This document shows, piece by piece, positions 15,337-35,798 of a stretch of DNA of 64,000 bases (position 1 is the first letter of the stretch; every line of letters begins with the position of its first letter). Origin of the DNA: an uncultured Dehalococcoidales bacterium (GTDB taxonomy: Bacteria; Chloroflexota; Dehalococcoidia; GIF9; AB-539-J10); the NCBI GenBank assembly GCA_964394145.1, contig CAYMVL010000025.1, positions 96,493-160,492 on the forward strand, read 5' to 3'. Below the pieces are notes generated by a model. It had not been told where the DNA came from and did no database searches. It was given only the letters and a program-made list of their open reading frames with translations. The translations under genes and the position numbers were made by a program.

Positions 15337-15520
15337 TGGCAGAGTTGCGCGCCGTCTCGGGTAAGAAAGCGCCGGCCTTTGACAGGGATGCCGGAGAGCT
15401 GTAAGAAGAGCCAAGCACACGGATATTATCGGCTCTATGATGGATTGTGGGGAAAGACTATTTATGAAATTGTGGTAAGAATCGCGGAGTAAAAATTAAA
15501 GGGAAGGAGGTCTTACTACC

Positions 15521-15915: not shown

Positions 15916-16878
15916 CTAATCCTTCCTATAAAATTTCGCACCAGCGTCGCAGTCAAGGAATCCATCCCTTACACCCCTCATAAAAGCAACAAGCCTCCCC
16001 ATGTCACGATAATAGAGCAGACAAGCCGCTGTGGTGAACCAGAACCGATACGCGAAGAAATAGAGGAGGAAGCTGCGATATTGACCTTTGCTGGCATGTT
16101 TCTTCATGAATTTGAAGTTGTTTCTCGTCATATAGTATGCATAATTAGGAGGCGTATCAATTTGATCTTTCCTTCGCAGTGTCTTATACCATGGCTTCAG
16201 CCTGGAGGGTTTCTTATGCCAGATGCTTGCTTTTGGAGCGTAGATAATTTTGTAGCCAGCTTCCCTGGCTCTGAAGCAGTAGTCTGTTTCATCCCAATAA
16301 CAGAAGTAGCTTGTGTCAAGGAATCCAATATGTTGAATAACCTGGCGCTTCACTAAGAAGCAAGAGCCTTGCACATAATTTACCTCGCTAACACAGTCAT
16401 ATTGCCCTCGGTCAACTTCTCCACTGCCTACATGAAAAGCCCTCCCCTTACGCATATCCACACGATACCACACAAGTTGGAGCCTGTCTGGAAAATCATA
16501 GAGGTAAGTCTTTGGTCCAACTATGCCGACTGACTTATCACTCTCCGCAAGCTTGACCATCTCGGTCAGGAAGTCAGGAGCGACGGTAACATCGTTATTC
16601 AGTACCAAGAAATAGTCTGCTGAAGGATCACTTAAGGCGTATCTTATGCCCATGTTATTACCGCCGGTGTAGCCATAATTCTTATCGTTTCGGATTAGAT
16701 GAATGTAATCACCAAAGTCCCCCTCCAGGATCTGCACATCACTCCCCTTAGAGCCATTGTCAACCACAACAACCTCATAGTTTGGATAGGTAATCTTCTT
16801 TAGCGATTCTAGGCACTCAACAGTATCGTCCAGTCCGTTCCAGTTGAGGATTATGATAGAGACTTCGGGATACTTCAT
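15916..16878 (-). CDS. glycosyltransferase family 2
   Basis: VSIIILNWNGLDDTVECLESL...EVVVVDNGS...LNNDV, a classic GT2 with a DxD. Its ATG overlaps the upstream methyltransferase stop as ATGA. Confidence 0.85.
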   Translation of the reverse strand: MKYPEVSIIILNWNGLDDTVECLESLKKITYPNYEVVVVDNGSKGSDVQILEGDFGDYIHLIRNDKNYGYTGGNNMGIRYALSDPSADYFLVLNNDVTVAPDFLTEMVKLAESDKSVGIVGPKTYLYDFPDRLQLVWYRVDMRKGRAFHVGSGEVDRGQYDCVSEVNYVQGSCFLVKRQVIQHIGFLDTSYFCYWDETDYCFRAREAGYKIIYAPKASIWHKKPSRLKPWYKTLRRKDQIDTPPNYAYYMTRNNFKFMKKHASKGQYRSFLLYFFAYRFWFTTAACLLYYRDMGRLVAFMRGVRDGFLDCDAGAKFYRKD

Positions 16879-17561
16879 TTCCCACCACTAATTTGTTTAA
16901 CTGCAAGCAATTGGAATGCCAGTTTTGGGTAGTAGTAGGTAACCTTTTGGCTCAAATCAGAGAGCCTGCCCCATAAAAAGTGGGGGGCGTATTTTGTCTG
17001 ACCCCTATATCCCCTCAGTTTTTTCCAGCCGTTCATTCCATGGACTTCGAACCCTAGCTTCTGTAATTCTTTAGCGGTCCAGCCAGATTTATGCTCTTGT
17101 AATGGATTGTTGTCGTAACCATCCTGCCAGAGGTATCCATTTGGCGTTGTAATTATAACCTTCTTCCCAGCCCATGTTTGCATTTTATTGATTAGCCTAT
17201 ACCCTTCCTCTTTCGTTAAGTGTTCCAACAACTCAATAGCTATAACGACGTCAACGGATTTGGGCCTAAGCTGCATTCCTCTAGCATCCGCCTTAATGTA
17301 TTGATCATGAATACCCTTCCTTTTGCTTTCCTGCAGGTAAGGCTCGAATAGTTCAACCCCAACTGAAAAAGCAACATCACAATGTTGGATTGGAGAATCG
17401 CAACCACAGCCCAAATCTAAAACTGCATCGCAGTTCGAAAGTTCCCTTTTCAAATATTCAATCAAGCTAGGAAATAACCTTCTATAAAAAGGCTTCAAAG
17501 TCTTGATTAGCGAACGTCTCTTCTGTTTTGCTACGATGTCAAAGGATTGCGGACCTTTCAA
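16875..17561 (-). CDS. class I SAM-dependent methyltransferase
   Basis: Motif I VLDLGCGCDSP and a methyltransferase-type-11-like fold. TTG start with no clear SD, so the start is uncertain. Confidence 0.75.
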   Translation of the reverse strand: MKGPQSFDIVAKQKRRSLIKTLKPFYRRLFPSLIEYLKRELSNCDAVLDLGCGCDSPIQHCDVAFSVGVELFEPYLQESKRKGIHDQYIKADARGMQLRPKSVDVVIAIELLEHLTKEEGYRLINKMQTWAGKKVIITTPNGYLWQDGYDNNPLQEHKSGWTAKELQKLGFEVHGMNGWKKLRGYRGQTKYAPHFLWGRLSDLSQKVTYYYPKLAFQLLAVKQISGGK

Positions 17562-20519: not shown

Positions 20520-21434
20520 ATGAAGCTCAAGAGAGCATTGAAATACATAAGGGAGGGTGATTTCGCATCCCCCTGGGCCTGGTTCGCAGCAAAGACCTTT
20601 TGGCCACTACTTCACAGAGACCTGGGCACAGGAAAAGCTGTAAGAGTCATGGAACAGGATTGGGACTACTTGATTGTGCTGGATGCCTGTAGATATGACA
20701 CATTTAAAGAAGTAGTAGACGCCCAGGCGGGGTGCGTTATATCCGGGGGAACCCATACTCAGGCATGGCTGGAATGGAACTTTAGACAAGAGTATCGGGA
20801 TGTTATATACGTAGCGGGCAACCCTCATTTTGCCACCGCATACCTAAAGAAGACTCTGGGATTTAACCCCTTCTACATGGTGGAAGAGGTTTGGGACTAC
20901 GGATGGGATGACAGCCTCAAGACGGTGCCTCCGGAGCAGGTGACCAATGCAGCACTCAAGACGCTGAAAACCTACCCTGAAAAGAGGATGATAGTCCACT
21001 ATATGCAGCCTCACCATCCCTATATAGCCGACAGACAGCTTCTGGATGCAGATGACGGAACCTACCGCGGCTTCGAGGACACTGGTAGATGGCCGGAACA
21101 GATAACACCACTAAGACTGGCCAGAAGGGGCAAGGTTTCCATTCATAGAGTCAAGAAAGCGTACGAACAAAACCTGAGAATAGTAATGAAGGAAGTGGAA
21201 CGGCTTAAGGAATGGTTGCCTGGGAGAGTCATCTTGACGGCAGACCATGGAGACCTCTTTGGGGAACAGGGACTTTACGGGCACGGGACGAATTTGAGGG
21301 TAGACGCCCTGGTAAAAGTGCCCTGGGTGATTCTGAAAGACGAGAAGAGACGACGGGCATCTGGAGAACCCGGCGGTGAGAGGACGAGAGTTAGAGCCAA
21401 GATAGTGGACCTCAAACGATCAGGCAGGTTATAG
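20520..21434 (+). CDS. alkaline phosphatase superfamily (sulfatase-like core) protein
   Basis: LIVLDACRYD metal-site motif near the N-terminus and TADHGDLFGEQGLYGHG near the C-terminus. It is shorter, at 304 aa. Confidence 0.6.
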   Translation: MKLKRALKYIREGDFASPWAWFAAKTFWPLLHRDLGTGKAVRVMEQDWDYLIVLDACRYDTFKEVVDAQAGCVISGGTHTQAWLEWNFRQEYRDVIYVAGNPHFATAYLKKTLGFNPFYMVEEVWDYGWDDSLKTVPPEQVTNAALKTLKTYPEKRMIVHYMQPHHPYIADRQLLDADDGTYRGFEDTGRWPEQITPLRLARRGKVSIHRVKKAYEQNLRIVMKEVERLKEWLPGRVILTADHGDLFGEQGLYGHGTNLRVDALVKVPWVILKDEKRRRASGEPGGERTRVRAKIVDLKRSGRL

Positions 21435-22970
21435 AAACCTGCGCAAGATTTTCTTAATAGAAGATAAATTGAGGCCCGCCCTCTTCTCCATTGCCAGAAG
21501 CATGGTTATGTCCTCCTTGTCAAAGCTCCTGGTAAACAGGATAGCCAGGCCATACACGACATAGTAGAGGATGAACAGCAAGGGGAGCATCCACCAGACT
21601 ACAGCCACGAAGTCCTCAAGAATGAATTTGAACAGGAACACCAGGGCTAGAGAAACCAGGGTTGGCTTGAGCAGCTTCCTGCTCAGGGGCTGCGCCCCGC
21701 TCAGTGTGTAAAGCTTCCGGTAACTTAGCACGTTAATCGACGTTATGGCAGCTACGGAAGCAATAGCGGCTCCTTCTATGCCAAAGGGCGGAATCAAGGC
21801 AAGGTTCAGCCCGACATTTAGGACGGCACTTGCCAGGGTAACCCACATGATAAACCTGACCTGCCCCATGGCAATCAGGGTAGCCCCGTTAGGCCCCAGG
21901 AAATTGTTGACGATGTAACCTACGGACAGAATTTTGAGGGCTGTCGCTGCCGGAGCATAGCTTGTGCCAAATAGAAAAGCGAGCACGGTTTCGGGAAACA
22001 GGAAAATGATAAAGAACAGTGGTAATGTAGCCGAGCATAACCACTTGGTGAGAACGGAAAAATTCCTCCTCATTTCAGCCATTGAACCTTGGGCGTAGAG
22101 GCCCGACGCAACCGGCATATAAATGGATAGCATGGCCACCAGCGGGCTTGAAATGAACTGTGCCAGGGGATGGGCGGCGTTATAGAGCGCGACATCCACT
22201 GAGCTCCTCATTGCCCCCAGCATCAGGGTATCCGTCCAGGCAATAATCAGGTGAAGCACGGCTATCCCGAGCAAGGGAAGCGAGAATGAGAGAAGCTGCC
22301 CGGCTACGGGGTTTGCACTCAGCGCGGTGCGCAATCCCACGGGGACGGGGAGCCTTTTAGGGGCATAGAGTATGAGAGCCACACAGGATATGACCATGGC
22401 AGCCAGGTGCGCATAGAACACGTGATTAAAGGGCAAATGGAGCAAAATAACAGGCAGAAGAAACAGTAGCAGAAGCAAGTTCCTGAGAATATCCCGGAAG
22501 TAAACAGCAGGCTTCACGTCATCAAAGCCCCTGAATACGGAAACAAATACATATATCAGCGTGAAAAACGGTATGGCGAAGGCGAATATTTTCAGCGGAA
22601 CAGCAAGAGCAGCATCGTGAAAAACTCCGCTGGCAATGATATCCGAAGTAAAGAAGACGATGATGCCCAGGGCAATGCCTGCTATAAGAGCAAACTGAAT
22701 CGAGGCGGGAATCAGCTTCTGGATCCTTTGATTATCGTTTTGGCCCCGGGCATAGGCGATGCTTCTTGTGACCCCTTCCTGCAAGCCCAGCGCGGCAATT
22801 ACGGCACAGATGTTGAGTATAACGAAGGCCAGGGAGAAAACTCCGTAATCAGCTTCCGTCCCGTACCTGGCAATTATCAGCCTGGCGATAAAGGCAAGAA
22901 ACAAAGCTGCTAAGGAGCCCGTGAAAGCTATCCCTGTGCCTTTGGTGATTTTTACCAGCGAAGCGTCCAA
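21429..22970 (-). CDS. polysaccharide biosynthesis protein / oligosaccharide flippase (Wzx/MOP family)
   Basis: 12-14 TM helices with the MOP-flippase N-terminus LVKITKGTGIAFTGSLAALFLAFIARLIIARYGTEADYGVFSLAF. There is no in-frame ATG near the N-terminus. The likely start is TTG at 22970 (AGGGTG upstream) or GTG at 22979. The track ORF runs to 23090. Confidence 0.7.
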   Translation of the reverse strand: MDASLVKITKGTGIAFTGSLAALFLAFIARLIIARYGTEADYGVFSLAFVILNICAVIAALGLQEGVTRSIAYARGQNDNQRIQKLIPASIQFALIAGIALGIIVFFTSDIIASGVFHDAALAVPLKIFAFAIPFFTLIYVFVSVFRGFDDVKPAVYFRDILRNLLLLLFLLPVILLHLPFNHVFYAHLAAMVISCVALILYAPKRLPVPVGLRTALSANPVAGQLLSFSLPLLGIAVLHLIIAWTDTLMLGAMRSSVDVALYNAAHPLAQFISSPLVAMLSIYMPVASGLYAQGSMAEMRRNFSVLTKWLCSATLPLFFIIFLFPETVLAFLFGTSYAPAATALKILSVGYIVNNFLGPNGATLIAMGQVRFIMWVTLASAVLNVGLNLALIPPFGIEGAAIASVAAITSINVLSYRKLYTLSGAQPLSRKLLKPTLVSLALVFLFKFILEDFVAVVWWMLPLLFILYYVVYGLAILFTRSFDKEDITMLLAMEKRAGLNLSSIKKILRRFL

Positions 22971-23086
22971 TCTAGTCACCCTGGTTCGTTGTGTTATTTT
23001 GCTTCCGTTGAGATTATAGCTTTTCTCCTTTACGAAAGGAATGGGGTACGGGAGATATAATCTGCAGGGACCGCTGCTGTAAGTGA

Positions 23087-23863
23087 TCAACTGGTGGAGG
23101 ATAACAGGGCGTAAAATACGTCCTGCGGCTTATCTATCCGGTAGTCCATATTGACAGTTATCAGCAGGGCGTTCTCATGGTGATCGCCCTTGAGCCTTCC
23201 CCCGGCTGTCTGTTCTGGCAGAGTCTGCACTTCGGCTTCGCCAAAGGAGCAGAAGCCATGGTCGGAGATTATAATCAAGCTGTTGCTCTTGTCGCCGAGA
23301 AAACCGCTATCGAAAAGAAGTGCGCCAATCTTCTCGTCCAGTTTCCGGTACCATTCCAGGACGCAATCCTCACCCCAGTGGAAGTGCTGGATGCGGTCAA
23401 GCAGCGTGTAGACGGAGATGAGCAGATCGGGCCCTTCCGCCAGGAGTTCGGCTGTCTTCCCGGTGACCCTTTCCAGTTCTTGCTGCCACTCTTTATCGTT
23501 TGTGGGAAGACCAAAGCCCACAGGTTTGAAATCCACATTGAAGGAATAGGAGGGGACAACAAAGGGAACATTCAGCGCCTTTACCCTCTTGCCCTCCCTG
23601 TGGAGGATATCCCAGATGAAGTCCACTTTGATGTCTTCCCGCCTGACGATATTTCCATCAACCGCGTAACTGTGATGTCCATGCTCCTCTGGAGTCTTGC
23701 CAGAGAACATGCCACACCATATGGAGGCGGAGAATAGCTCCTGTTTGACGACAAGCTCGCGACATCTTCCTGTATCACAGAGCTTCCTGAAAGTGCTGAG
23801 CCTGTCCAGGTTTGGCCTAATGACCGTCCAGGTAGCAGCATCAATACCGAGAACGAGAATCAT
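23087..23863 (-). CDS. alkaline phosphatase family protein (type I phosphodiesterase/nucleotide pyrophosphatase-like)
   Basis: [11 protein letters not shown]-terminal metal site and IIISDHGF C-terminal site. Its ATG overlaps the cysN stop as ATGA. Confidence 0.7.
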
Positions 23864-25068
23864 CTGCCCGCCTCCAGGACTACCCCTGCTCCAATGTTCC
23901 TATCGTTCACCAGAACGAAGCGCCCAAGCTCAGGAATGTCGGAGAACTTTTCCACCACCAGGGGTTCGGTAGCGAAGAGTATTGTCGCTGCCTCATTTTC
24001 GCTTATCACTGCCGGGTATTTCTCCACAACTTCGCCCGTCTCAGAATTTATTCTCTCCCTTATTTCCTTTACCTCACAGCCTACCCTTGCCGTTCCACAC
24101 CTCAATTCAAGTTTGTCCCCCCTTCTCAAATTCCTTTCCAGCAATACAGCCTCGCCGATGAACTCCTTTACGGGTGTCGGCGGGGATGCCAGAAGACCGC
24201 AAACATCACCCCTGCTCACTTCGCCGTCCACTACAATTCCCACGCTGTCTCCCCGCTCTGCCTCAAGCAACTCGCCCGCGAAGTCCTTCATCCTTTTAAT
24301 TTCCGCCGCAACGCCCGAAGGTTGGAAGATAACCCTGTCCCCTTTCTTCAGCGTACCGGACTCTACCCTTCCTACAACGACCCTGTCGGAGTCAACCCCG
24401 TATGTATCCTGGACGACAAACCTGAGCGGCCTCTGTTCCTTGCTCACCACCACTCTGTCCAGAGTCTGAATCAAGGTGGGTCCTTCGTACCATCTCATCC
24501 GCCGGGACGGCTTGTAGATGTTATCCCCCTCCATAGCCGAGGCAGGCATAAAAGGTACATCGCGATAACCAAGCGAGCTCAGGAGCTGAGTTACCTCAGC
24601 CTTGATACGACCAAAGACCTCAGCGCTATAGTCCACAGCATCCATCTTGTTTACCAGGACGAAGAGTTGCTTTATGCCCAGCATGTGTATCAAGAAAGCA
24701 TGCCTTCCCGTCTGCTCCTGGATGCCTTCATCTGCGGCCACTACCAGAACAGCCACGTCGGCATGAGAAGCGCCGGTGAGCATATTCTTTATAAACTCCT
24801 TATGCCCCGGCACATCCGTGATGGAATAGAGGTTCTTCTGGCCCTTAAACATGACTCCCGTGGTATCTATGGTGCGCTCCTCTTTCAGCTCGTCGTCAAA
24901 CGAGTCAATAAAGTAGGCGAACTCAAATCTCTTCTTGTACTCCTCAGCCAGCTTCTGAATCTCCTCCACCCGCCCCTCGTTTATGCTCTCGGAGTCGTAA
25001 AGCAACCTCCCTATTAAGGTGGACTTGCCGTGGTCCACATGGCCTGTGATGACTACATTTACATTCAT
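23860..25068 (-). CDS. cysN: sulfate adenylyltransferase subunit 1 (GTPase, CysN/NodQ family), no APS-kinase domain
   Basis: [14 protein letters not shown] and NKMD G-motifs. It is 402 aa, so only the EF-Tu-like GTPase and beta-barrel domains are present. Confidence 0.85.
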
Positions 25069-25135
25069 AACTGTACCCTCCTAGAAATCAAAATTTAAAC
25101 GCTAAAATTCAAAAAGACAATGCGAAATTTAAAAG

Positions 25136-25507
25136 TCATCTCTTGCCTCTTAGCGTCAAAATGCTCGCAGCGATGACACTGGCAATCTCCGTCAACTCTT
25201 CTAGAAGCTTCTGACTTAGCTCCTTTTCAGATTTGCCAGAGTCTTGTAACAGCCCCAGCCAGAATTTTGTCTCATTGGCTGATTTTAAGGCGTGGGCAAA
25301 GAAATTAGTGTAGTCCTTATTCGAAACAGCACCTTGAGCCTCAGCCATATTTGCCCCGATGCTGGTAGCACTCCGTAGTAACTGGTCACCAATAATCCTT
25401 GATGTCTGGTCCTTCGGCAGTTGTTCGATAAACCGGATAACATCCAGAGCAAATTGATATACCCGCTGCCTAAACTCGTCTTTAAACTTCAATCTCGCAT
25501 TTTGCAT
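25136..25507 (-). CDS. four-helix-bundle protein (23S rRNA intervening-sequence protein / Avd-like family)
   Basis: QFALDVIRFIEQLPKDQTSRIIGDQLLRSATSIGANMAEAQGA...FAHALKSANETKFWL matches the TIGR02436/PF05635 family pattern. Flanked on both sides by AT-rich low-complexity sequence. Confidence 0.8.
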   Translation of the reverse strand: MQNARLKFKDEFRQRVYQFALDVIRFIEQLPKDQTSRIIGDQLLRSATSIGANMAEAQGAVSNKDYTNFFAHALKSANETKFWLGLLQDSGKSEKELSQKLLEELTEIASVIAASILTLRGKR

Positions 25508-25533
25508 TTTTGTTTTTAATTTTTGGATTTTGT

Positions 25534-26334
25534 TTACATATATCCTAACGCCCTCAGCTTCTGCATGGTGAAAGCCTTCTCCTTGTCCTGTGCTCTGCCG
25601 GACCTTTCCGCAATCCTGGTCGTCCTCAGCTCCTCGACTATCTCATCGATGGTGCTGGCGTTGGAGTCGATGGGGAAGGTGCATGGCTCACATCCCAGGC
25701 TCCTGTACCTTTTCCCATTTTTGGCAAAATACATGGGGTTCACGGGAAGTCCTTCCTCCCTGACGTATTCCCAGACATCCAGCTCCCGCCAGTGCAGAAT
25801 CGGATGCACTCTGGTGTGCGTCCTGTCATCAGTCGTAGCCTGGTACTGGTCCCACATCTCCAGCGGCTGGTTCTTATAGTCCCATCTGAAGTCCTCATCC
25901 CGCGGGGAGAAATACCTCTCCTTGGCTCGTATGCCATGCTCATCCCTCCTTATAGCCAGGATAAGGGCATCGAATCCATTCTTCTCCAGGCATTGCATCA
26001 GGGCCTCCGTTTTCAACCTGGTGCAGCATTCAAACTTTCCGTCCTTGGGGCCCACCCCCTGTGCAATCGCCTCTTCATTTCTGGCTACCACCAGGTCCAG
26101 GCCCCATTCTCTGGCGATCCTGTCCCTGAACTCATACATCTGCTTGAATTTATACGTAGTATCGATGTGAATTACAGGGAAGGGAATCTTGCCGAAAAAG
26201 GCCTTGCGACAAAGCGAGAGAGCGGCGGTGCTATCCTTGCCTGTGCTCCACAGGACTGCCGGTCTCTTGAACTCGGCATAGGCCTCCCTTATTATGTATA
26301 TGCTCCGATTTTCCAGCTCCTTCAGTTCTAGCAT
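25534..26334 (-). CDS. cysD: sulfate adenylyltransferase subunit 2 (CysD)
   Basis: PAPS-reductase-like fold (AVLWSTGKDSTAALSL, HIDTTYKF). The ATG at 26334 is preceded by an AGGAGGTG SD. The track start, a GTG at 26343, lies inside that SD. Confidence 0.85.
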   Translation of the reverse strand: MLELKELENRSIYIIREAYAEFKRPAVLWSTGKDSTAALSLCRKAFFGKIPFPVIHIDTTYKFKQMYEFRDRIAREWGLDLVVARNEEAIAQGVGPKDGKFECCTRLKTEALMQCLEKNGFDALILAIRRDEHGIRAKERYFSPRDEDFRWDYKNQPLEMWDQYQATTDDRTHTRVHPILHWRELDVWEYVREEGLPVNPMYFAKNGKRYRSLGCEPCTFPIDSNASTIDEIVEELRTTRIAERSGRAQDKEKAFTMQKLRALGYM

Positions 26335-26360
26335 GGTAATCACCTCCTGATAATTCGTTA

Positions 26361-27158
26361 TTAGAAGACAAATGCCTTAGCTAGGGTCGCTGCCCCTAGC
26401 AGGCATGTGACTCCCCCGATAAGCAATTTTAGCCTGTCAGAACCTAACCTTTTAACCGTCATAGCTGCAAATGGCGCTGCTATAACTGAGCCTATGGCAG
26501 CAGCAGCGACGAGCGTCCAGTATACATCGCCTTTGAGCAACAGATACGCCAAGAAACTCACAGCGCAAACAATAGTGACTGCAACCGTGGTGCTCCCAAC
26601 AGAGTTCTTTACCTCCCGTCCGCTAATTATCTGCCCGCCTGTCACCAGCGGAATGTACCCTCCTCCACTTATCCCCTTGTTAAAAGAGCTTAAGATTCCT
26701 ATCCCGATAAGCCTTTTCCACGAAAGCGCTCCTGCCCTGCTCCTGCGCATGAGGACCAGTATTCCCACCGCCAGGACCATCACCCCTATGTAAATTTCGA
26801 GAGCAAGCTCCGGGATATTCATAGCACAGACCACACCTGTAAGGCCGCCAATCACCCCACAGATGGCCAGAGTGAATACGACCTTAGCATCTTGGGACCT
26901 GGGCAGATAACCCAGTCCTCGCAACCTCTCTTTTATCAACCTGTCATCCCGTCTGAAATCCAGACTTATGTTCCTCACCCGGTGGTGTGCAACCCCTCCA
27001 ATTAAACCACCCGCAAACTGGCTTAACAATACCGCCGGGATAACCTGCAAAGGGGCGAATCCCATGATAAGAAGCACGGGCGCCAGAGCAGTCCCATAAC
27101 CCAGTCCCACGGAAATGCTCATATACTGGAACAAAAGAGCAAACAAGGCTACAGCCAT
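26361..27158 (-). CDS. TauE/SafE family sulfite/sulfonate exporter-like membrane protein (DUF81)
   Basis: 265 aa with 8 TM helices and two repeated halves. Glycine-rich TM motifs typical of DUF81. Confidence 0.75.
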   Translation of the reverse strand: MAVALFALLFQYMSISVGLGYGTALAPVLLIMGFAPLQVIPAVLLSQFAGGLIGGVAHHRVRNISLDFRRDDRLIKERLRGLGYLPRSQDAKVVFTLAICGVIGGLTGVVCAMNIPELALEIYIGVMVLAVGILVLMRRSRAGALSWKRLIGIGILSSFNKGISGGGYIPLVTGGQIISGREVKNSVGSTTVAVTIVCAVSFLAYLLLKGDVYWTLVAAAAIGSVIAAPFAAMTVKRLGSDRLKLLIGGVTCLLGAATLAKAFVF

Positions 27159-27191: not shown

Positions 27192-27410
27192 CTAGTCCAG
27201 ATAGCCCAGAGCCTTGAGCCTCTTCTTTACCTCCTGCTCGTCTTCCTCGCTGAAGCTCCTGTCGCTCTCTTCTTCCTTGACAACTTCTTGCAGCACAAAT
27301 TCAACGTACTCATCCACCGACCCGAAATCAGTAGCCTTCACTCTTTCCTCCACCTTCCGGTAAAGCTCGGCAGGCAAAAACACAGCCTTATTCTCTGCTT
27401 TTTCTGTCAT
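27192..27410 (-). CDS. ribbon-helix-helix (CopG-like) small protein
   Basis: 72 aa (MTEKAENKAVFLPAELYRKVEERVKATDFGSVDEYVEFVLQEVVKEEESDRSFSEEDEQEVKKRLKALGYLD). AAGGAGGT SD 12 nt upstream. Its ATG overlaps the stop of the upstream paralog as ATGA. Confidence 0.6.
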   Translation of the reverse strand: MTEKAENKAVFLPAELYRKVEERVKATDFGSVDEYVEFVLQEVVKEEESDRSFSEEDEQEVKKRLKALGYLD

Positions 27411-27619
27411 AGATAGCCTAACCTCCTTAATCTTTCTCTGATTGCTCTTACCTCTTCCTCGGTAAGCCTGTCCCCTCCCTTTATCTCGCCGCTGGATGCC
27501 AGATTGCGCATAACAAAGATGATGAATTCCGTCACGCTGGAGAAGCCTGTCCCTTTTATCATCTGCGTCAGGCTCAGATAAAGCTCCCTTGGTATCTTGA
27601 TGGTGACCCTGTCTCCCAT
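27407..27619 (-). CDS. ribbon-helix-helix (CopG-like) small protein, paralog of 27192-27410
   Basis: MGDRVTIKIPRELYLSLTQMIKGTGFSSVTEFIIFVMRNLASSGEIKGGDRLTEEEVRAIRERLRRLGYL. Same beta-strand/helix pattern and C-terminal RLxxLGYL motif. Confidence 0.6.
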   Translation of the reverse strand: MGDRVTIKIPRELYLSLTQMIKGTGFSSVTEFIIFVMRNLASSGEIKGGDRLTEEEVRAIRERLRRLGYL

Positions 27620-27679: not shown

Positions 27680-27926
27680 AGGCTGCCCAAGCTGGGCCTA
27701 AGCAATCCCGGGGCAGCCATGAGATTGCCGCGCTTCGCTCGCAATGACATGCCATTTTGTCGTTGCGAGGCTGGCCAGACCAGCCGAAGCAATCTGAGGG
27801 GCCAGCGATGGGATTGCCGCGCTTCGCTCGCAATGACATCCCGCTTTGTCGTTGCGAGGCAGGCAAAGCCAGCCGAAGCAATCCCGGGCCAGTGATGAGA
27901 TTGCCACGCTTCGCTCGCAATGACAT
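27680..27926. repeat. tandem array (~2.8 copies) of an 87-89 bp unit, each containing a 12-bp hairpin
   Basis: Units at 27719-27807, 27808-27894 and 27895-~27926 (truncated), plus a partial unit at 27680-27718. The unit begins atgRgattgccgcgcttcgctcgcaatgacat. The inverted repeat ctcgcaatgaca / tgtcgttgcgag allows one G-U pair. It lies between the rfbD stop and the RHH gene start. Confidence 0.8.
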
Positions 27927-27963: not shown

Positions 27964-28833
27964 TCAGGCTATGTGCCCTCTGGCAACCAGGTAATGCTTG
28001 AGCGCTTCCTGCCAGGGCCTCATGTCATCCAGGCCCAGGAGCCGCAGGTGGTAATTGTCCAGCACGGAGTAGCCGGGCCTTATGGCTTTCTGGGGATACC
28101 GGTCTGAGCTTATCGGAATTACCGGGGTCCTCAAGCCCGCCAGCTTCAGTATCTCTCCGGCGAATTCGTACCAGGAACAGGAGCCCCTGTTGGTGATATG
28201 GAATATGCCATAGTATTCGGTCTGGAGAATCTGGGCTATCTTCCCAGCCAGGTCGCCGGTATAGGTGGGGGAGAATACCTGATCATTGACCACCTTGATT
28301 TCGTCGCGCTCTCCGGCCAGCCTGAGCATGGTTTCGATGAAGTTGCCGCCTTTGCCGCTGGAGCCGGCCAGGCCGAAAAGCCCCGAAGCTCTGATGATGA
28401 AGTGCCTGAGGCAAAGATGGCGGACAAGGTCTTCCCCGGCCAGCTTGGACTTGCCGTAAACGCTGAGGGGGACAGGCGTCTCGAATTCGGTGTAGGGGGT
28501 GCTTCGTGGCTCAGCATTACCGCCGAAGACGTAGTCGGTGCTGAGATGTATCAGCTTAGCGCCGAGTTCCTGCGCGACCACCGCGACATTGCGGGCTCCC
28601 AGAGCGTTCACCTGGAAGGCTTTCTCCTTTTCGTCTTCGCAGTCGTCAACGCGAACACAGGCGGCGGTATTGATGATGACATCAGGATTGCGCTTGAGCA
28701 TGGCTCCCCTGACGGAAGCCATGTCGGCAATTTCGATATCGGTATGGGTAAGGGGAATGACATCGAAGTCATGCAGGGCCCGGCACAGATCAGTGCCCAG
28801 TTGTCCGTTAGCGCCTGTTACTGCTACTTTCAC
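27964..28833 (-). CDS. rfbD: dTDP-4-dehydrorhamnose reductase
   Basis: KVAVTGANGQLG Rossmann motif and RmlD topology. The GTG start at 28833 overlaps the rfbB TGA stop as GTGA. The longest ORF, to 28893, would overlap rfbB by 64 nt. Confidence 0.85.
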   Translation of the reverse strand: MKVAVTGANGQLGTDLCRALHDFDVIPLTHTDIEIADMASVRGAMLKRNPDVIINTAACVRVDDCEDEKEKAFQVNALGARNVAVVAQELGAKLIHLSTDYVFGGNAEPRSTPYTEFETPVPLSVYGKSKLAGEDLVRHLCLRHFIIRASGLFGLAGSSGKGGNFIETMLRLAGERDEIKVVNDQVFSPTYTGDLAGKIAQILQTEYYGIFHITNRGSCSWYEFAGEILKLAGLRTPVIPISSDRYPQKAIRPGYSVLDNYHLRLLGLDDMRPWQEALKHYLVARGHIA

Positions 28834-29834
28834 CTTTTGAGGTACATTTCCTCGTAGTATCTTGAGTATTCGCCGCTCTTGATTGACTGCCACCAGGACC
28901 GGTTGTTCAGATACCAGTCAACAGTAGCACCCAGGGCTCCTTCAAAGGTGTAAGCCGGCTTCCAGCCCAGCTCCGCAGTTATCTTGGTGCAATCGAGGGC
29001 GTAGCGGCGGTCGTGGGCGGGACGGTCGGAGACGAATTGTATCAGGCTCTGCGGTTTTCCCAGTAACTCCAGCAACCTGTGGATAAGCTCCAGGTTGCTC
29101 TTCTCATTGCCGCCGCCGATATTGTATATCTCTCCCGGCCGGCCTTTCTGAAGCACGGCATTGAGAGCCCGGCAGTGGTCGTTTACAAAGATCCAGTCCC
29201 TGACATTGAGGCCATCGCCGTACACGGGGACCGGCTTATCCTCCAGAGCGTTGGTGATAGCCAGCGGGATTAGCTTCTCGGGAAACTGGTATGGTCCTAA
29301 GTTGTTAGTACAGCGGGTGATGATTACCGGGACATGGTGGGTCCTGAAGTAGGCAAGAGATAAGAGGTCGGCAGCAGCCTTGCTGGCTGAATACGGGCTG
29401 CTGGGTGACAGAAGCGATTGCTCATCGAAGCGGCCAATATCAACAGAGCCGTAGACTTCATCAGTGGAGACCTGGACAAATCTCCCGATCCCGTGCTTTT
29501 TTGCCCCTTCAAGGAGCACCTGAGTCCCCTTAACATTGGTCTCAATGAATGGAGAGGCGTCCATGATGCTGCGGTCAACGTGGCTCTCGGCGGCACAATT
29601 CACAACGAAATCAAAGCCCTCACCGAGCAACCTATCTACCAGCTTCCTGTCAGCTATATCACCTTTGATGAAACGGTAGCCGGGCCGGCCTTCCATATCC
29701 TTTAAGTTCTCCATGTTGCCGGCATAGGTGAGCTTGTCCAGATTGCTTATCTCCCAGTCGGCATGTTCTTGCCGGATATGGCGAATGAAATTAGAGCCGA
29801 TGAAGCCGGCGCCCCCGGTGACCAGTAGCTTCAT
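28830..29834 (-). CDS. rfbB: dTDP-glucose 4,6-dehydratase
   Basis: MKLLVTGGAGFIGSNF... and a YSASKAA catalytic motif. The ATG at 29834 is preceded by GGAGGAGG and overlaps the rfbC stop as ATGA. Confidence 0.9.
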   Translation of the reverse strand: MKLLVTGGAGFIGSNFIRHIRQEHADWEISNLDKLTYAGNMENLKDMEGRPGYRFIKGDIADRKLVDRLLGEGFDFVVNCAAESHVDRSIMDASPFIETNVKGTQVLLEGAKKHGIGRFVQVSTDEVYGSVDIGRFDEQSLLSPSSPYSASKAAADLLSLAYFRTHHVPVIITRCTNNLGPYQFPEKLIPLAITNALEDKPVPVYGDGLNVRDWIFVNDHCRALNAVLQKGRPGEIYNIGGGNEKSNLELIHRLLELLGKPQSLIQFVSDRPAHDRRYALDCTKITAELGWKPAYTFEGALGATVDWYLNNRSWWQSIKSGEYSRYYEEMYLKR

Positions 29835-30400
29835 TTCGCCTCCTCCATGTAGTGAAACCGGATATCGGCATCCCTCAGAGCGGGCCATTTTTCATCTTTT
29901 GCGGATAAAATAGGGTCTTTAACAGGCCACTCGATATTCAGCTCTGCATCATTCCAGATAATACCGGCTTCAGATTTGAGTGAGTAAACATCGGTGGTCT
30001 TATATATCACTTCGGCAATGTCCGAAAGAACACAGAAACCATGGGCCAGTCCTGCCGGGATATAGAGCATATTCCTGTTTTCCTCCGACAGGACTACACC
30101 CACCCATTTGCCCCGCGCAGGCGAGCCCTCTCTTATGTCAACGGCGACATCAAATATCTCGCCCCTTACCACCCTGACCAGCTTCCCCTGCGCGAAAGGC
30201 GGCTTCTGATAATGCAGCCCCCTGAGAACGCCTTTGCTGGAACGGGAGTGGTTCTCCTGGACAAAAGCCGCCTTTATGCCACCAGCAACGAAGTCCGGCA
30301 TCTTGTATGTTTCCATAAAGAAACCCCTGCCGTCTTCAAATACCTCTGGCTCTATCAGGACCAGTCCTGGAATATCTAGCGTCTTGAAAGCGAATGGCAC
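29831..30400 (-). CDS. rfbC: dTDP-4-dehydrorhamnose 3,5-epimerase
   Basis: RmlC cupin (GLVLIEPEVFEDGRGFF, RGLHYQ). GTG start at 30400 with an AAGGGAGAGG SD. Confidence 0.9.
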   Translation of the reverse strand: MPFAFKTLDIPGLVLIEPEVFEDGRGFFMETYKMPDFVAGGIKAAFVQENHSRSSKGVLRGLHYQKPPFAQGKLVRVVRGEIFDVAVDIREGSPARGKWVGVVLSEENRNMLYIPAGLAHGFCVLSDIAEVIYKTTDVYSLKSEAGIIWNDAELNIEWPVKDPILSAKDEKWPALRDADIRFHYMEEAK

Positions 30401-30420
30401 GTAAAACCTCTCCCTTGCTG

Positions 30421-30530
30421 GTTCAATAGTTCAATGGTTTCATGGTTCAATAGTTCAATAGTTCAATGGTTCAATGGTTTCATGGTTCAATCGTTGTTGG
30501 TTTTTTGGTTGCTGGTTTGCTGGTTCTTAA
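30421..30530. repeat. 8-nt periodic simple repeat (GTTCAATR) x9, decaying into GTTGYTG-like units
   Basis: gttcaatagttcaatggtttcatggttcaatagttcaatagttcaatggttcaatggtttcatggttcaatcgttgttgg... fills the rfbC to four-helix-bundle-gene spacer. The degenerate part encodes the C-terminal KPATKKPTTIEP tail of the four-helix-bundle protein. Confidence 0.8.
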
Positions 30531-30878
30531 GTAGCGAATGAAACCCTGTAACATCCTGGCAACTTTGCTGCATTGCTCCGTTAATGAGTCGAATTGATTA
30601 CCACTAATGTAATGCAAATCCAAAGCGGCGTAAAGTTGGGATTGAGCCTCTGCTGTAGAACGTAGAGAATAGCCCAGGAAAGTTGTAAATTCTCTGTTCG
30701 ATTGACACATAAAACCTTCGGCAATATTGGACATAACAGATATAACAGCCCGCTGAATTTGATCTCTCAACTCTCGGTCATTTTTGAATGGTGCTTTATT
30801 AGTGGCTTCATAAACCATCTTAACCAGTAACCTTGCCTCTCTCCATGCCTCTATATCCTCAAATCGCTCAATCTTCAT
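30480..30878 (-). CDS. four-helix-bundle protein (23S rRNA IVS protein / Avd-like family), second copy
   Basis: MKIERFEDIEAWREARLLVKMVYEATNKAPFKNDRELRDQIQRAVISVMSNIAEGF...STAEAQSQLYAALDLHYI, the canonical TIGR02436 pattern. Inserted between rfbA and rfbC. Confidence 0.8.
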   Translation of the reverse strand: MKIERFEDIEAWREARLLVKMVYEATNKAPFKNDRELRDQIQRAVISVMSNIAEGFMCQSNREFTTFLGYSLRSTAEAQSQLYAALDLHYISGNQFDSLTEQCSKVARMLQGFIRYLRTSKPATKKPTTIEP

Positions 30879-30887
30879 TAACTCTCA

Positions 30888-30935
30888 AACTATCTAACCA
30901 TCAACTATCTAACCATGTAACTATCTAACCACCCA
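30888..30935. repeat. about 3 tandem copies of a 15-16 nt unit ACTATCTAACCAYSW
   Basis: aactatctaaccatca / actatctaaccatgta / actatctaaccaccca fills the entire rfbA-stop to four-helix-bundle-start spacer. Confidence 0.7.
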
Positions 30936-30943
30936 ACCATCCC

Positions 30944-32035
30944 CTACAGCTCCACTCTGGCATCGTCGCCGACGAAAAGCCTCAGCGCCTTCAATGTCTG
31001 CCTGCCTTGTGTTACCTCGGTGCCCCGGCCTATAACGCTATCAGCCAGGCGCTCGATTCCAGAGATACGGCATCTCTCCAGTATCACCGAGTGCCCGATG
31101 GACGACCCCTCTATCACAGTACCCGCTCCAACGCTCGTGAAAGGGCCGATGAATGAATTCTTAACCTTACAGTCCTGATCTATGGAGACCGGCCCCCTGA
31201 TGGTGCTGTTTTCTATGCTTGTCCCTTCTCTGATTTCGACTCTGCCGGCCACCTGGCTGCCGGCATCAACCTCACCCCTCAAGTCGCGCTTTACAAATTC
31301 ATCAAGTACAACGCGGTTAGCTTCCAGCAGGTCGTCTTTCTTGCCCGTATCCAGCCACCAGCCTGTGAGGATATGGCTTCGGACCTTCTTGCCGGAATCA
31401 ATGAGCTGCTGGATGGTATCGGTTATTTCAAGTTCTCCCCGCCAGGAGGGTTCTATCCTCTCTATTGCACGGTGCACTTCTCCTGTGAAAAGATAAACGC
31501 CGGGCACTGCCAGATTTGTCTTCGGCTCGCGTGGTTTTTCCACAATGCTGGTTATCTCGCCTCTCTCGTTTAGTTCGGCAACGCCGAACAGACGCGGGTC
31601 TGGGACCTCTTTAAGCAGGACAAGCGCATCAGCCCTGTTTGTCGTAAACTCCTGAACAAAACTCCTGACGCCGCCCTGAATAAGATTGTCGCCAAGAAAC
31701 ATCAAGAAGGCAGAATCGCCCAGGAAGTCCCGGGCTGTCTTCACAGCATGGGCAAGCCCCAGAGGTTCGGATTGTAAAATGTAAGTAATTTGGGCATTCC
31801 ACCTTGAACCATCGCCCACAGCTTCCTTTATCCCCTGCCCCGTTTCCGGTGAAATAATAATTCCGATATCGTCTATCCCGGCTTCAGCGACCTGCTCCAA
31901 AACATAATACAGTATGGGCTTATTAGCCACCGCAATAAGCTGTTTCGCCAGAGTGTTGGTTAGGGGCCTGAGCCTGGTGCCCTTGCCCCCGCAGAGGATA
32001 ATAGCTTTCATGCCGGACAGGCGCTGCTCGTTCAT
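30944..32035 (-). CDS. rfbA: glucose-1-phosphate thymidylyltransferase, long form with C-terminal left-handed beta-helix domain
   Basis: N-terminal [11 protein letters not shown] nucleotidyltransferase motif. It is 363 aa with a C-terminal hexapeptide-repeat region ([20 protein letters not shown]...). An alternative ATG at 32011 gives MKAIILCGG. Confidence 0.85.
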
Positions 32036-32122: not shown

Positions 32123-34504
32123 TCACGACCCGGCTGGCCTGACATACTCAAAGATCTTTATCTGCGGTGAACTGTGACCTGCCAGCGTCGCCGTGGCAGG
32201 AGATTCATAGACTATCCTGTAGCTGTGCAACTCCTCCAGAGGCACAGCGCTGGCGAAGGGATCGGCGCTCACTATGCGCTGCTCTCCCGGCTCCTGGCTC
32301 GACATATACGCCTCTGCCTCGCCATAGCTGGAAAATGACTCTACCTTGGTGATTATCTTGTAGTCTGTCCCCTCCTGGCTGACCACCCGGTAAGAGATAA
32401 CAAGTATCTGCCCGGGCAGCTGAGCCTTAGCATCAAAGTTGTAAAGCCTGACCACCATAGAATTATAATAGGCAGGATAGAACAGGGTTATCTGCTCCAG
32501 TTTGCCGTCTCCGCTTTCCTGATAATAGGTGTCGTAGAACTCGTCCTGGCTCCCTCCCACCCACTGCGGCATGGCATAGAACTTGGAGCTGGCCATAGCA
32601 TGGTCAATTATTATGTATTTTGAGCCGACCTTGTCCATCATTTCCCCGGCTGAATCCTCGTCCTGAGCAAGGAAGAAGTGCGCCACATTCTGGACACCCT
32701 GCTGAAACGGGTTGGAAACGGGTATACGGTGGGCGATGCGGCTTATCCAGTGACCGTAGTCCCACCAGGAGAGTACGCTATAGGCGGTATCGGGGTACTG
32801 AAACGGTGTCTCATATAGCTGATAATAGGCATCAGGGTCGTCAAAGGGCTCAGGGCTATTAGACTTGAGCCACTCAAGCGAGCTATGCCACGCCTCGGTG
32901 ATGAGAAGTGGATTCCGGGCAATTGCCTCAGCTTTGCTGAAATTGGGGAAGAAGATAAGAAAGAAAAGGGCTACACCGGTCAGGATTACCCTGACCCGAA
33001 GAATCTTGCGCTGCCGCAGCGCCCTCACGTCCACCCGCCCCTCAACTCTCCTTTTCTGCTTTGCCTTCCTTGTTTGTACGTAATCTTTGACCAGATCAAC
33101 AGGCTCAGCCAGTAACTGTTTCAGCCCGGCGAAATCCAGGACCCTCCAGGCGAAATATCCTGCCAGCAAAGCCGCATTTACGGCGAAATAATAGCTGAAG
33201 CGGCGCTGCCCCAGAACGGCTACCAGCATTATCAGGCTCCATACCAGGAACAGCGTTTTATCTGGGCTCTCTTCCTTGATGCTGCGGTAAATCAGCCAGC
33301 CAAACGATATGAAGCAGATAAAGAAAGAGGTGGTGAAGTTGACCCAGGCTATCCTGAGGGAGAATGTGCCGTACGGCAACAGTAAAGGCTGCATCTCCAG
33401 TATGGTCAGGGCAGCACCGGCAGGGCTGAAGATGCTAAATCTAGCGAGCATTGAGTGGAGCAAGGCTGGATTAGCGGCATGAAAGATAGCAAGACCGATG
33501 CCGGCAAGCGCGGCCAGCGCTACAGGATAGAAGAAAGGCCTGACGCCTTGCCGGGTCATCACTCTGGAAATGCCGCTCAAGGCTACGGGCGCCAGTATGG
33601 CAACCAGGAAGGAGGCGGTATAGATAGAACTGAGCTGGTGTGCGGATAGATAAGGGAGATTGATTATAAGGGAGACAAGGAAAACCAGCACTCCAATCAT
33701 ACACAGGTAATCGGTTGATTTACCCCGCACGTGGTCTATGATGAACTGAATTAGCAGCCAGGCAGATATGATGAAGATAAGCAGCAGACCACCCACCCAG
33801 GTGAGAAGATAGATGCCCAGGAAGATGCCGGCAACTAAGGCATAAATGAGGGGCTTGATTACTTTGTTGCGCTCCCCTGTCCTCCCCCCTGAATGCAGAG
33901 GAAAAAGATGGTTGAAGGATATCTCTCTTTCTTTGAATTTCTTTACCGCCAGTATCAGGAATAGTATAGTCACAGCAGAGAATAAGCTCTCGGCCACATG
34001 GTGGTCCGCAAAGCCAAGCAGCGAGCGATTCAGAAATTCACCCGGCAGTACGGCCACCAGGCCCGCAGCGACTACACCCACCCAGCGATTGAATAGCTGC
34101 CTGCCTATGAAATAGACCGGAACAATCGTTACGGCAGCGAGAATGGGTGGAAGATAAGCTCCCGCTAAATCTATGCTGTGCTGCGACGGCGAACCCAGGT
34201 CAAGCAGCCAGGCGAAGCCGCCTACAAGCCAGTCAAAGAAGGGGGGCCAGGGCACCATGGTGCCACTGGGATAGTAGGTATAGGGGTCAAAAGCGATGCG
34301 GTGGGGAAAGTGCTGCAACAGGTTATCCACCAGCCTCATGTGGTACCAGGCATCGGTGCCTTGAAACCACACCGAGCCATGGCCAAAAACGTTGTCATAG
34401 GGCAGGGCTATACGAATATATAGAGAAATCCCGGCTATGATGAGCAGGGCTATGGTAACGATAAGGGATGGCCGGAGGCGACTTCTATTCACCTGAGTCG
34501 ACAT
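32123..34504 (-). CDS. aglB: oligosaccharyltransferase, STT3/AglB/PglB family (GT-C fold)
   Basis: 793 aa with about 13 N-terminal TM helices and a C-terminal periplasmic domain carrying the diagnostic WWDYGHWI motif. A downstream MMDKVGSKYIIID segment resembles the DK/MI motif. First gene of the 13-kb minus-strand cluster. Confidence 0.85.
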   Translation of the reverse strand: MSTQVNRSRLRPSLIVTIALLIIAGISLYIRIALPYDNVFGHGSVWFQGTDAWYHMRLVDNLLQHFPHRIAFDPYTYYPSGTMVPWPPFFDWLVGGFAWLLDLGSPSQHSIDLAGAYLPPILAAVTIVPVYFIGRQLFNRWVGVVAAGLVAVLPGEFLNRSLLGFADHHVAESLFSAVTILFLILAVKKFKEREISFNHLFPLHSGGRTGERNKVIKPLIYALVAGIFLGIYLLTWVGGLLLIFIISAWLLIQFIIDHVRGKSTDYLCMIGVLVFLVSLIINLPYLSAHQLSSIYTASFLVAILAPVALSGISRVMTRQGVRPFFYPVALAALAGIGLAIFHAANPALLHSMLARFSIFSPAGAALTILEMQPLLLPYGTFSLRIAWVNFTTSFFICFISFGWLIYRSIKEESPDKTLFLVWSLIMLVAVLGQRRFSYYFAVNAALLAGYFAWRVLDFAGLKQLLAEPVDLVKDYVQTRKAKQKRRVEGRVDVRALRQRKILRVRVILTGVALFFLIFFPNFSKAEAIARNPLLITEAWHSSLEWLKSNSPEPFDDPDAYYQLYETPFQYPDTAYSVLSWWDYGHWISRIAHRIPVSNPFQQGVQNVAHFFLAQDEDSAGEMMDKVGSKYIIIDHAMASSKFYAMPQWVGGSQDEFYDTYYQESGDGKLEQITLFYPAYYNSMVVRLYNFDAKAQLPGQILVISYRVVSQEGTDYKIITKVESFSSYGEAEAYMSSQEPGEQRIVSADPFASAVPLEELHSYRIVYESPATATLAGHSSPQIKIFEYVRPAGS

Positions 34505-35709: not shown

Positions 35710-35798
<89 letters not shown>

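Follow-up and report, generated by a model that had tools for sequence, protein, structure and literature searches.

A candidate sulfate-activation module for surface-glycan sulfation, with an alkaline-phosphatase-superfamily partner, in an uncultured Dehalococcoidales bacterium

On a 64,000-nucleotide stretch of contig CAYMVL010000025.1 from an uncultured Dehalococcoidales bacterium (hereafter the window), genes for sulfate activation are embedded in a cluster of glycan genes. The interval under study, 23860–27158, holds four open reading frames (ORFs), all on the minus strand. We propose, with a probability of roughly 0.55, that they belong to a dedicated sulfate-activation module for the sulfation of surface glycans, in which enzymes of the alkaline phosphatase (AP) superfamily would replace both adenosine 5'-phosphosulfate (APS) kinase and a classical sulfotransferase. 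The informative unit has the order RHH–RHH–TauE–CysD–GTPase–AP258 and is common to Dehalococcoidia and archaea; RHH denotes small ribbon-helix-helix proteins and AP258 a 258-residue member of the AP superfamily. An initial annotation had recognised cysD, cysN and a TauE gene in the interval, which the ORFs and domain scores bear out far beyond chance, and had preferred glycan sulfation to assimilation, a reading that the glycan neighbours in 80 related loci support. It overlooked a four-helix-bundle gene (25136–25507) and the tight coupling of the CysN gene to that of AP258, the most informative feature of the locus.

Conserved pairing of CysD, a CysN-like GTPase and AP258

AP258 is encoded at 23087..23863 on the minus strand and matches PF01663 at 54 bits (cutoff 23), as a relative of nucleotide pyrophosphatases/phosphodiesterases (NPPs) and COG3379 proteins. 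Scanning one genome per GTDB species for AP258 yielded 80 loci: 42 in Chloroflexota, mostly Dehalococcoidia, at 66–79% identity, 37 in archaea and one in a gammaproteobacterial metagenome-assembled genome (MAG). The archaeal carriers are ANME-1/Methanophagales (~70% identity), Methanosarcinales MAGs, Aenigmatarchaeota, Nanoarchaeota, Hadesarchaea, Altiarchaeales, Hydrothermarchaeota and Methanohalarchaeum. Among the 41 loci with adequate flanks, 36 encode CysD no further than 4.5 kb from AP258 and 33 encode the GTPase within that distance, and AP258 lies directly downstream of the GTPase in all ten contexts that have enough flank for this to be seen (L001–L003, L005–L007, L092–L094 and the window). 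Among more distant archaea, minimal units made up of RHH, AP258 and CysD are encoded in Altiarchaeales, Hydrothermarchaeales and Nanoarchaeota and on a DPANN chromosome; because these archaeal units drop the GTPase, we regard CysD and AP258 as the constant pair. L016, from a Dehalococcoidia MAG, is one of the five exceptions among the 41 that lack CysD, and carries a truncated cysD; there (L016:8334-9523), immediately before AP258, a gene of the canonical Sulfotransfer_1/3 fold (8897-9523) stands where cysN would be expected. Since CysD of the window is 76–86% identical to that of ANME-1 or Dehalococcoidia (76–80% for the ANME-1 loci) and AP258 is ~70% identical to the ANME-1 genes, the sequences suggest a recent transfer of the module between domains.

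The gene at 25534..26343 (minus strand) encodes CysD, the PP-loop catalytic subunit of ATP sulfurylase, with 266–269 residues depending on the start codon. It matches PAPS_reduct at 3e-43 and scores 343.6 bits on NF003587 (cutoff 195), whereas it falls below two stricter models (TIGR02039, 266.8 versus 396.6; NF009214, 277 versus 413). Alignment to Pseudomonas syringae CysD (1ZUN_A) gave E = 2.6e-73, with the C-terminal GY tail conserved, and the PP-loop STGKDS is visible in the sequence. An intein that includes a LAGLIDADG homing endonuclease interrupts CysD of two DPANN-type archaeal MAGs, close to the N-terminal portion of the PAPS_reduct domain (L063:2-1981 and L066:314-2434); we had considered the long 'CysD' proteins of these two loci as possible fusions, and ruled this out since each consists of CysD plus the intein.

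The GTPase (23860..25068, minus strand; 402 residues) shows a GTP_EFTU match of 5.7e-45 followed by EF-Tu-type domains 2 and 3, and Pfam finds no APS-kinase domain in it, in line with the description first given of a short CysN without fused CysC. Its name is another matter. The protein remains under both curated cutoffs, that for CysN (TIGR02034, 291.4 versus 336.1) and that for EF-1alpha (384 versus 502), as well as under that of a second EF-1alpha model (358 bits), and among PDB structures archaeal EF-1alpha matches it best (309 bits), ahead of Pseudomonas CysN 1ZUN_B (195 bits). It keeps the G1, G3 and G4 motifs, including NKMD, and its gene adjoins cysD in 57 of the 80 loci, with the four-helix-bundle gene inserted between them in the window. 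Because these motifs are kept and the gene lies beside cysD, it is, judged from sequence, best named a CysN-like partner and not a textbook CysN. A published Bayesian tree places the ANME-1 orthologues of this GTPase with CysN (PMC6286981). The clade could be an early-branching form, which would bear on the proposed origin of CysN from EF-1alpha.

The inserted gene (25136..25507, minus strand) encodes a 123-residue four-helix-bundle protein of the 23S rRNA IVP family (PF05635, 3.6e-23; TIGR02436, 95.8 bits). It is missing from the cysD/cysN site in L005, L006, L092 and L094 and present there in L009, L014, L023 and L093. In the ANME-1 locus L058, whose contig does not include cysD, such a gene directly precedes cysN, and in L029 one separates cysN from AP258. 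We therefore consider the copy between cysD and cysN as probably a passenger. A second gene of the family (30480–30878, minus strand; PF05635/TIGR02436) is found among the rhamnose genes of the window, with arrays of 8-nt tandem repeats on both sides (30413–30503 and 30879–30939). Small genes of this kind inside operons may be mobile cassettes.

Glycan neighbours and the case for assimilation

To describe the surroundings of AP258, all six-frame ORFs from the 80 loci were clustered into families. Recurrent neighbours are a Wzx-type flippase (19/80 loci), an NDP-sugar nucleotidyltransferase (13/80), an NAD epimerase/dehydratase (12/80), sulfatase-like proteins (11/80), two families of glycosyltransferase (GT) 2 (11/80 and 6/80), Phosphodiest proteins of 450–550 residues (9/80), UDP-glucose dehydrogenase (7/80), DUF1616 (6/80) and GT4 (6/80). 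A DegT aminotransferase and a GFO/IDH oxidoreductase also recur, and blastp found the oligosaccharyltransferase AglB in four of the loci. Among the annotated recurrent families we found none that is assimilatory (cysH, sulfite reductase, cysK or cysE).

The window itself gave the same picture. Domain scans covered its 59 major ORFs over 64 kb, leaving aside a 141-residue ORF at 333–758 and ORFs of fewer than 110 residues, and none of the 59 showed a Pfam domain of APS kinase (PF01583), sulfotransferase, reductase of APS or 3'-phosphoadenosine 5'-phosphosulfate (PAPS), sulfite reductase or cysteine synthase. The genes cysC, cysH, cysI and cysK were found neither in the window nor in the ~10 kb beyond each of its ends, which hold housekeeping genes only; the initial annotation had said that cysH and cysI immediately outside the window, in a genome with no other cysDN copy, would indicate plain assimilation. 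A tblastn search for APS kinase over the window and 91 loci (1.2 Mb) retrieved nothing better than E = 0.016, with an Escherichia coli CysC sequence that served only as a probe. Likewise, the PAPS-type sulfotransferase fold (Sulfotransfer_1/2/3) is absent from the scanned ORFs of the window, as first reported, and the gene at 8897-9523 in L016 is its only case in the related loci.

These results bear on the alternative of plain assimilation, in which APS made by CysDN is reduced to sulfide and used for cysteine, and the genes lie in a glycan island by coincidence. This CysD does score above the cutoff of the curated model NF003587, and ANME-1 has APS kinase and homologues of APS/PAPS-reductase elsewhere in its genome; against this, cysH, sir, cysK and cysE are missing from the window and its 10-kb flanks as well as from the annotated recurrent neighbours of the 80 loci, which are overwhelmingly glycan genes. 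Assimilation would leave the AP258 partner without a role in the pathway, and the module is found in DPANN archaea, a group of limited biosynthetic capacity. Assimilation is nevertheless the published reading for deep-sea Chloroflexota and for ANME-1 cysDN, the latter including the very genome that contains L061, in a study that also detected CysN peptides in metaproteomes (Yu et al, 2018; PMC6286981; for ANME-1 CysDN, see also Meyerdierks, 2010). Sulfidic sediments, the habitat of these organisms, make sulfate assimilation unnecessary, and the presence of these genes in sulfidic habitats was called 'intriguing' by the same authors (PMC6286981). On balance, we regard assimilation as improbable.

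Sulfate supply, sulfuryl transfer and competing readings

In the route that we propose, the two small RHH proteins would regulate the unit and sulfate would enter through TauE, or, in relatives, through a Pst-like ATP-binding cassette (ABC) system or a DASS symporter. CysD and the EF-1alpha-like GTPase would convert ATP and sulfate into APS, the unfavourable step being driven by hydrolysis of GTP. AP258, translationally coupled to the GTPase, would take APS directly, without an APS kinase, and pass the sulfuryl group via Ser45 to an acceptor. The latter could be a lipid-linked or nucleotide sugar, or else the Thr-type sulfatase-like paralogues described below, which would give positional specificity. 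The sulfated, rhamnose-containing glycan would then be flipped by the MOP flippase and moved onto surface proteins by AglB. Within this route, we put forward only tentatively that AP258 is an APS-dependent sulfuryl-transfer enzyme. Equally tentative is the wider proposal that AP258 founds a PAPS-independent sulfotransferase system, docking on CysD and the GTPase and handing the sulfuryl group of nascent APS through Ser45 to lipid-linked glycans or Thr-type transferases, with the complex assembled by a peptide that several of the module proteins share.

A profile of AP258 compared with PDB sequences produced no match at E <= 1. Its fold was predicted with an AlphaFold2 model (mean predicted local distance difference test, pLDDT, 67; predicted template modelling score, pTM, 0.72). 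Foldseek aligned this model to phosphonoacetate hydrolase, ENPP1/3/5/6/7, a Xanthomonas NPP, MCR-1 and sulfatases, at E values of 3e-06 to 1e-04 and with probability 1.0 for phosphonoacetate hydrolase, the ENPPs and MCR-1. The model thus describes AP258 as a minimal AP-superfamily core whose fold neighbours are AMP-binding NPPs. Seven residues (D8, S45, D156, H160, D201, H202 and H228) are invariant across 79 sequences of 47–78% identity; by motif analogy, this pattern is that of a site that holds two metals and uses Ser as its nucleophile. Also invariant in the 79 sequences are H61, H63, R75 and K225, which could bind an oxyanion. AP258 has no signal peptide. The family is very compact: a search of 1.8 billion representatives yielded only 21 at E <= 1e-30, beyond which the long COG3379 proteins are the nearest relatives, and no fusion of AP258 to a kinase or a sulfotransferase was seen among these representatives.

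Several points count against the proposed route. The confidence of the structural model is only moderate (pLDDT 67), and AP258 shows 66–83% identity across Chloroflexota and ANME-1, more conservation than one expects of an enzyme that tailors glycans. Enzymes of the NPP type usually act on phosphorus and not on sulfur, and AP258 could merely hydrolyse APS, 3'-phosphoadenosine 5'-phosphate (PAP) or pyrophosphate. RHH–TauE–AP258 units without cysDN nearby exist in L011, L025 and L055, and AP258 stands alone in L074, L079 and L080; the ABC permease and ATPase of relatives clear the curated cutoffs for the phosphate proteins PstC and PstB. Glycan sulfation in these organisms is itself deduced from their genes. 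In addition, an APS kinase is encoded and expressed elsewhere in ANME-1 genomes bearing the module (PMC6286981), which leaves room for PAPS as the donor.

The last point underlies the main rival, in which sulfation proceeds via PAPS from a distal APS kinase and is catalysed by the Thr-type sulfatase-like proteins, while AP258 is a helper that clears an inhibitory by-product or draws the equilibrium forward, as a PAP 3'-phosphatase (an analogue of CysQ) or a pyrophosphatase. The likeness of AP258 to AMP-binding nucleotide pyrophosphatases/phosphodiesterases fits such a role, a housekeeping-type substrate would explain its very high conservation, and ATP sulfurylase needs removal of its products, as its thermodynamics require. 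That AP258 of L016 adjoins a canonical PAPS-type sulfotransferase fold agrees as well, although this is a single case. However, cysC was not found near the module in 1.2 Mb of sequence, where AP258 is nearly always there, and the CysD–AP258 pairs that lack the GTPase speak for AP258 being coupled directly to the reaction of CysD. We judge the PAPS route to be unlikely, and assimilation, scavenging and phospho-transfer fit the data less well.

If AP258 does work with APS as we suggest, the AP superfamily, and not the PAPS-sulfotransferase fold, would sulfate glycans in Dehalococcoidia, ANME-1, DPANN and other archaea, and the unnamed donor for the Halobacterium proteins Agl30 and Agl31 would be identified. 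CysD, the GTPase and AP258 are a testable three-protein system in which one can ask where the recently discovered sulfotransferases of the AP superfamily get their activated sulfate and if APS is a direct donor.

The window also encodes AP-superfamily proteins outside the unit. Two tandem sulfatase-family paralogues of 456 and 459 residues (17729–19099 and 19104–20483, plus strand; PF00884 at ~1e-45) find their best PDB sequence matches in carrageenan and choline sulfatases. When aligned to the sulfatase 6PT6, the formylglycine position is Glu in the first and Asn in the second and the Arg is lost (ETPVS, NTPAS). A Thr next to that position is invariant in 15/15 full-length homologues from Dehalococcoidia, ANME-1 and Nanoarchaeota, which also keep the D, HxxDxHxP and ADHG motifs, and neither protein has an N-terminal membrane domain of the LtaS/EptA type. 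With the formylglycine motif gone, the Thr conserved and the membrane domain absent, they look like soluble transferases and not hydrolases, and are candidate glycan sulfotransferases. The initial annotation had proposed AP/sulfatase-fold proteins for this role, which gains from the precedent of Agl30/31 (PMC11980604). A third, short AP/sulfatase-like protein of 304 residues (20520..21434, plus strand) scores 25.2 bits on PF00884, at the cutoff; its homologues adjoin the flippase in L006.

The AP-superfamily and sulfatase-like proteins, AP258 included, could alternatively add phosphoglycerol, phosphoethanolamine or a similar group to the glycan, as LtaS and EptA do, with the adjacency of cysDN a matter of chance. 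A Thr nucleophile and an ADHG motif resemble LtaS/EptA/MCR transferases, to which weak NCBIfam matches and the Foldseek match with MCR-1 also lead. Yet the membrane domain of lipid-donor transferases is absent, the linkage of AP258 to cysDN is far above chance (36/41 and 10/10), and Halobacterium proteins of the same type have been shown to sulfate glycans (PMC11980604). Phospho-transfer is thus a very improbable explanation.

Regarding sulfate supply, the TauE/SafE (TSUP) anion permease is encoded at 26361..27158 on the minus strand, with 90.2 bits on PF01925 against a gathering cutoff of 32.6, and lies directly upstream of cysD in 25 of the 80 loci. Its family assignment agrees with the first annotation, whereas the label of exporter is probably wrong in direction; we predict that TauE imports sulfate for the module, both direction and substrate being read from context. 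In the ANME-1 locus L054, AP258 adjoins a DASS Na+/sulfate symporter. We tie the module to sulfate because of TauE in 25 loci, this symporter and the sulfotransferase-fold gene of L016. In several Dehalococcoidia (L005, L006, L011, L092 and L093; for example L093:2375-5879), the operon includes, upstream of TauE and cysD, genes for a Pst-like ABC system that follow the same RHH pair. The binding protein of this system resembles PstS weakly (84 bits; cutoff 206), has altered loop residues and seems circularly permuted: its residues 190–315 align with the N-terminal half of PstS, and its residues 25–105 with the C-terminal half.

The transporters could also be read as parts of a scavenging pathway, in which a sulfonate, or an ester of organic sulfate or phosphate, enters through TauE or the ABC system, cytoplasmic AP258 frees the anion and CysDN activates it, or of a response to phosphate limitation. 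Sulfonates and sulfite are substrates of TSUP permeases, as the family name indicates. Hydrolysis is the typical activity of AP-superfamily enzymes, and both the RHH–TauE–AP258 units without cysDN and the PstC and PstB scores of the nearby ABC system would be accommodated. Scavenging leaves the glycan context and the coupling to the flippase unexplained, and the divergence and permutation of the binding protein relative to PstS, the lack of a signal peptide on AP258 and the symporter for inorganic sulfate in ANME-1 all count against it; we consider it quite improbable.

The unit is opened by a copG-type RHH protein of 70 residues (27407..27619, minus strand; PF01402 RHH_1, 5.3e-05), followed with a 4-nt overlap by a 72-residue paralogue (27192..27410, minus strand) that has no Pfam RHH match of its own and was assigned by paralogy, as it falls into the same blastp cluster. 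This cluster has 74 members in 48 of the 80 loci, usually as the first gene. The two proteins end in RERLRRLGYL and KKRLKALGYLD, respectively, and a loop of TauE carries IKERLRGLGYLPRS. We observed a peptide of the form L-[KR]-x-L-G-Y-[LMF] at the end of 69/74 RHH proteins and 53/59 CysD proteins and in the TauE loop in 17/27 cases (in the window at 27192–27619, 25534–25570 and ~26890–26930; loci L008–L087). Across 2940 six-frame ORFs it occurs in 146, nearly all of them module proteins; it is retained in loci without cysDN, and P. syringae CysD (1ZUN) has the same GY C-terminal tail. It may be a common docking peptide for the GTPase or AP258.

The glycan island and comparison with known systems

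The module is part of a glycan island of ~25 kb bracketed by tRNA genes at 9182–9253 and 35475–35795, as determined by an Rfam scan of the whole window in which four tRNAs were the sole matches. From 34504 down to 21429, the minus strand encodes AglB, rmlA, a four-helix-bundle protein, rmlC, rmlB, rmlD, and, after a 344-nt spacer, the RHH protein, its paralogue, TauE, CysD, the other four-helix-bundle protein, the CysN-like GTPase, AP258 and the flippase. The genes of this second half are spaced by 17–67 nt or overlap by 4 nt (RHH/RHH, cysN/AP258 and AP258/flippase). The run ends with the MOP/Wzx-type flippase (21429..23090; Polysacc_synt 8.2e-23, MatE). The dTDP-rhamnose genes rmlA, rmlC, rmlB and rmlD occupy 27964..32035 (rmlD 304 bits on TIGR01214; Pfam assignments of the identical locus L001). 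AglB/STT3 (32123..34504) is an oligosaccharyltransferase of archaeal type, with 705.5 bits on the 'archaeosortase-A-associated' archaeal model TIGR04154 (cutoff 450), STT3 PF02516, an AglB_core-like PF22627 match and the motif WWDYGHW; it lies 12 kb from the tandem sulfatase-like genes within the same island. The remaining genes, at 9485..17561 on mixed strands, encode by Pfam a GT2–GT4 fusion, a GT4, a DUF2206 membrane protein, a GT2 and a methyltransferase.

Three tandem repeats of ~88 nt (27696..27926, spaced 87–89 nt) fill part of the spacer between rmlD and the RHH-first unit. Each is of hairpin type and contains GTCATTGCGAGCGAAGCG...GGCAATC...CCTCGCAACGACAA, a unit that resembles a repeat of many bacterial genomes that gives rise to spurious 'SLRAKRGN' ORFs. 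Folding of the spacer repeats was not better than that of shuffled sequence (z = -1.25), the spacer matched no riboswitch or other known RNA in Rfam, and a scan for promoters and terminators returned counts at chance level, which carry no information on operon structure. The spacer, together with the first position of the RHH genes in the module elsewhere, suggests that the module has its own promoter. A single operon with the flippase, the phosphodiesterase-family protein and the rml genes had been assumed; the repeat-bearing spacer that separates the unit from rmlD makes co-transcription with the rml genes doubtful.

An archaeal host, as AglB might suggest, was ruled out by the bacterial housekeeping genes in the window and its flanks, namely trigger factor, ClpP, EF-P, a GAD-domain AspRS, DprA, FtsZ/FtsA, EF-Ts and RRF. 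Among named organisms, Dehalococcoidia and Chloroflexota MAGs carry the closest relatives of the module, and the same locus is present in the JGI metagenomes 3300001533, 3300001335 and 3300077563. Our literature search found no paper on AglB in Dehalococcoidia. Just beyond the island, at 37780–38991, a predicted lipoprotein (lipobox LIGAC) has a Pro-rich linker and PKD/Big_9 domains, and is a possible candidate for the surface glycoprotein substrate. Cultured relatives of this bacterial lineage have no peptidoglycan. If our reading is right, an archaeal-type AglB N-glycosylation pathway with sulfation resides in a tRNA-flanked bacterial island, and the CysD identities of 76–86% across the two domains suggest that the complete gene set for decorating the surface passed between them recently. 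On this reading, cysDN in ANME-1, in Dehalococcoidia of deep sediments and in DPANN archaea would also be reassigned from assimilation to cell-surface sulfation, with consequences for metagenomic readings of the sulfur cycle.

Among known systems, the heterodimeric ATP sulfurylase CysD–CysN (E. coli, P. syringae), with NodP–NodQ of rhizobia and CysDNC of Mycobacterium tuberculosis, shares with this module the PP-loop CysD with its GY tail and an adjacent GTPase of the EF-Tu/EF-1alpha type. Sulfate activated by NodPQ and in mycobacteria feeds sulfated glycolipids and glycans. Here, in contrast, the GTPase is nearer to archaeal EF-1alpha and under the CysN cutoff, and CysD is ~30 residues short of 1ZUN_A. 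NodQ and CysNC include an APS kinase, which is neither fused nor neighbouring in our locus, and instead of a sulfotransferase of the NodH/Stf type an AP-superfamily gene is coupled to the unit. ANME-1 CysDN belongs to the same gene family, CysD of L061 (from the ANME-1b genome of PMC6286981) being 77% identical to that of the window.

AP258 has the AP core fold of NPPs, phosphonoacetate hydrolase and COG3379 proteins, with the bimetal ligands D8, D156, H160, D201, H202 and H228 and the nucleophile at a helix start. It differs in size (258 residues against ~380–400 in NPPs), in lacking the insertion domain of its 450–550-residue COG3379 relatives, in having Ser where NPPs have Thr as nucleophile, and in forming a compact, conserved clade tied to cysD. 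The tandem paralogues, for their part, share PF00884 (~1e-45) and a C-terminal SGSH_C-like region with S1 sulfatases; unlike these, they lack the C/S-x-P-x-R formylglycine motif, are predicted to be cytoplasmic and have the conserved Thr.

The closest parallels for the glycan side come from haloarchaea. In Halobacterium salinarum, deletion and heterologous expression established that the AP-superfamily proteins Agl30 (VNG1056C) and Agl31 (VNG1057C) sulfate the N-linked tetrasaccharide; their genes are in the aglB cluster, and neither donor nor catalytic residues were named (Zaretsky et al, 2025; PMC11980604). In Haloferax volcanii, the low-salt cluster (agl7, agl11-14 and agl15) makes a sulfated rhamnose tetrasaccharide and includes rhamnose genes, a flippase and the Agl7 sulfation step (Kaminski et al, 2013; PMC3892788). 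Our locus resembles both in its sulfatase-like AP proteins within an aglB-anchored cluster and in its rhamnose genes, flippase and presumed sulfation step, the likeness to Agl30/31 being one of family and gene context, with active-site residues outside the comparison. It differs in that the host is a bacterium (Chloroflexota) and that sulfate-activation genes, which were not reported for the haloarchaeal clusters, are part of the cluster. The AP258 partner and its glycan context are not reported in PMC11980604, PMC3892788 or PMC6286981. The known kind of system is sulfate activation for glycan sulfation, and what we describe here is a variant of it with an AP258-coupled unit.

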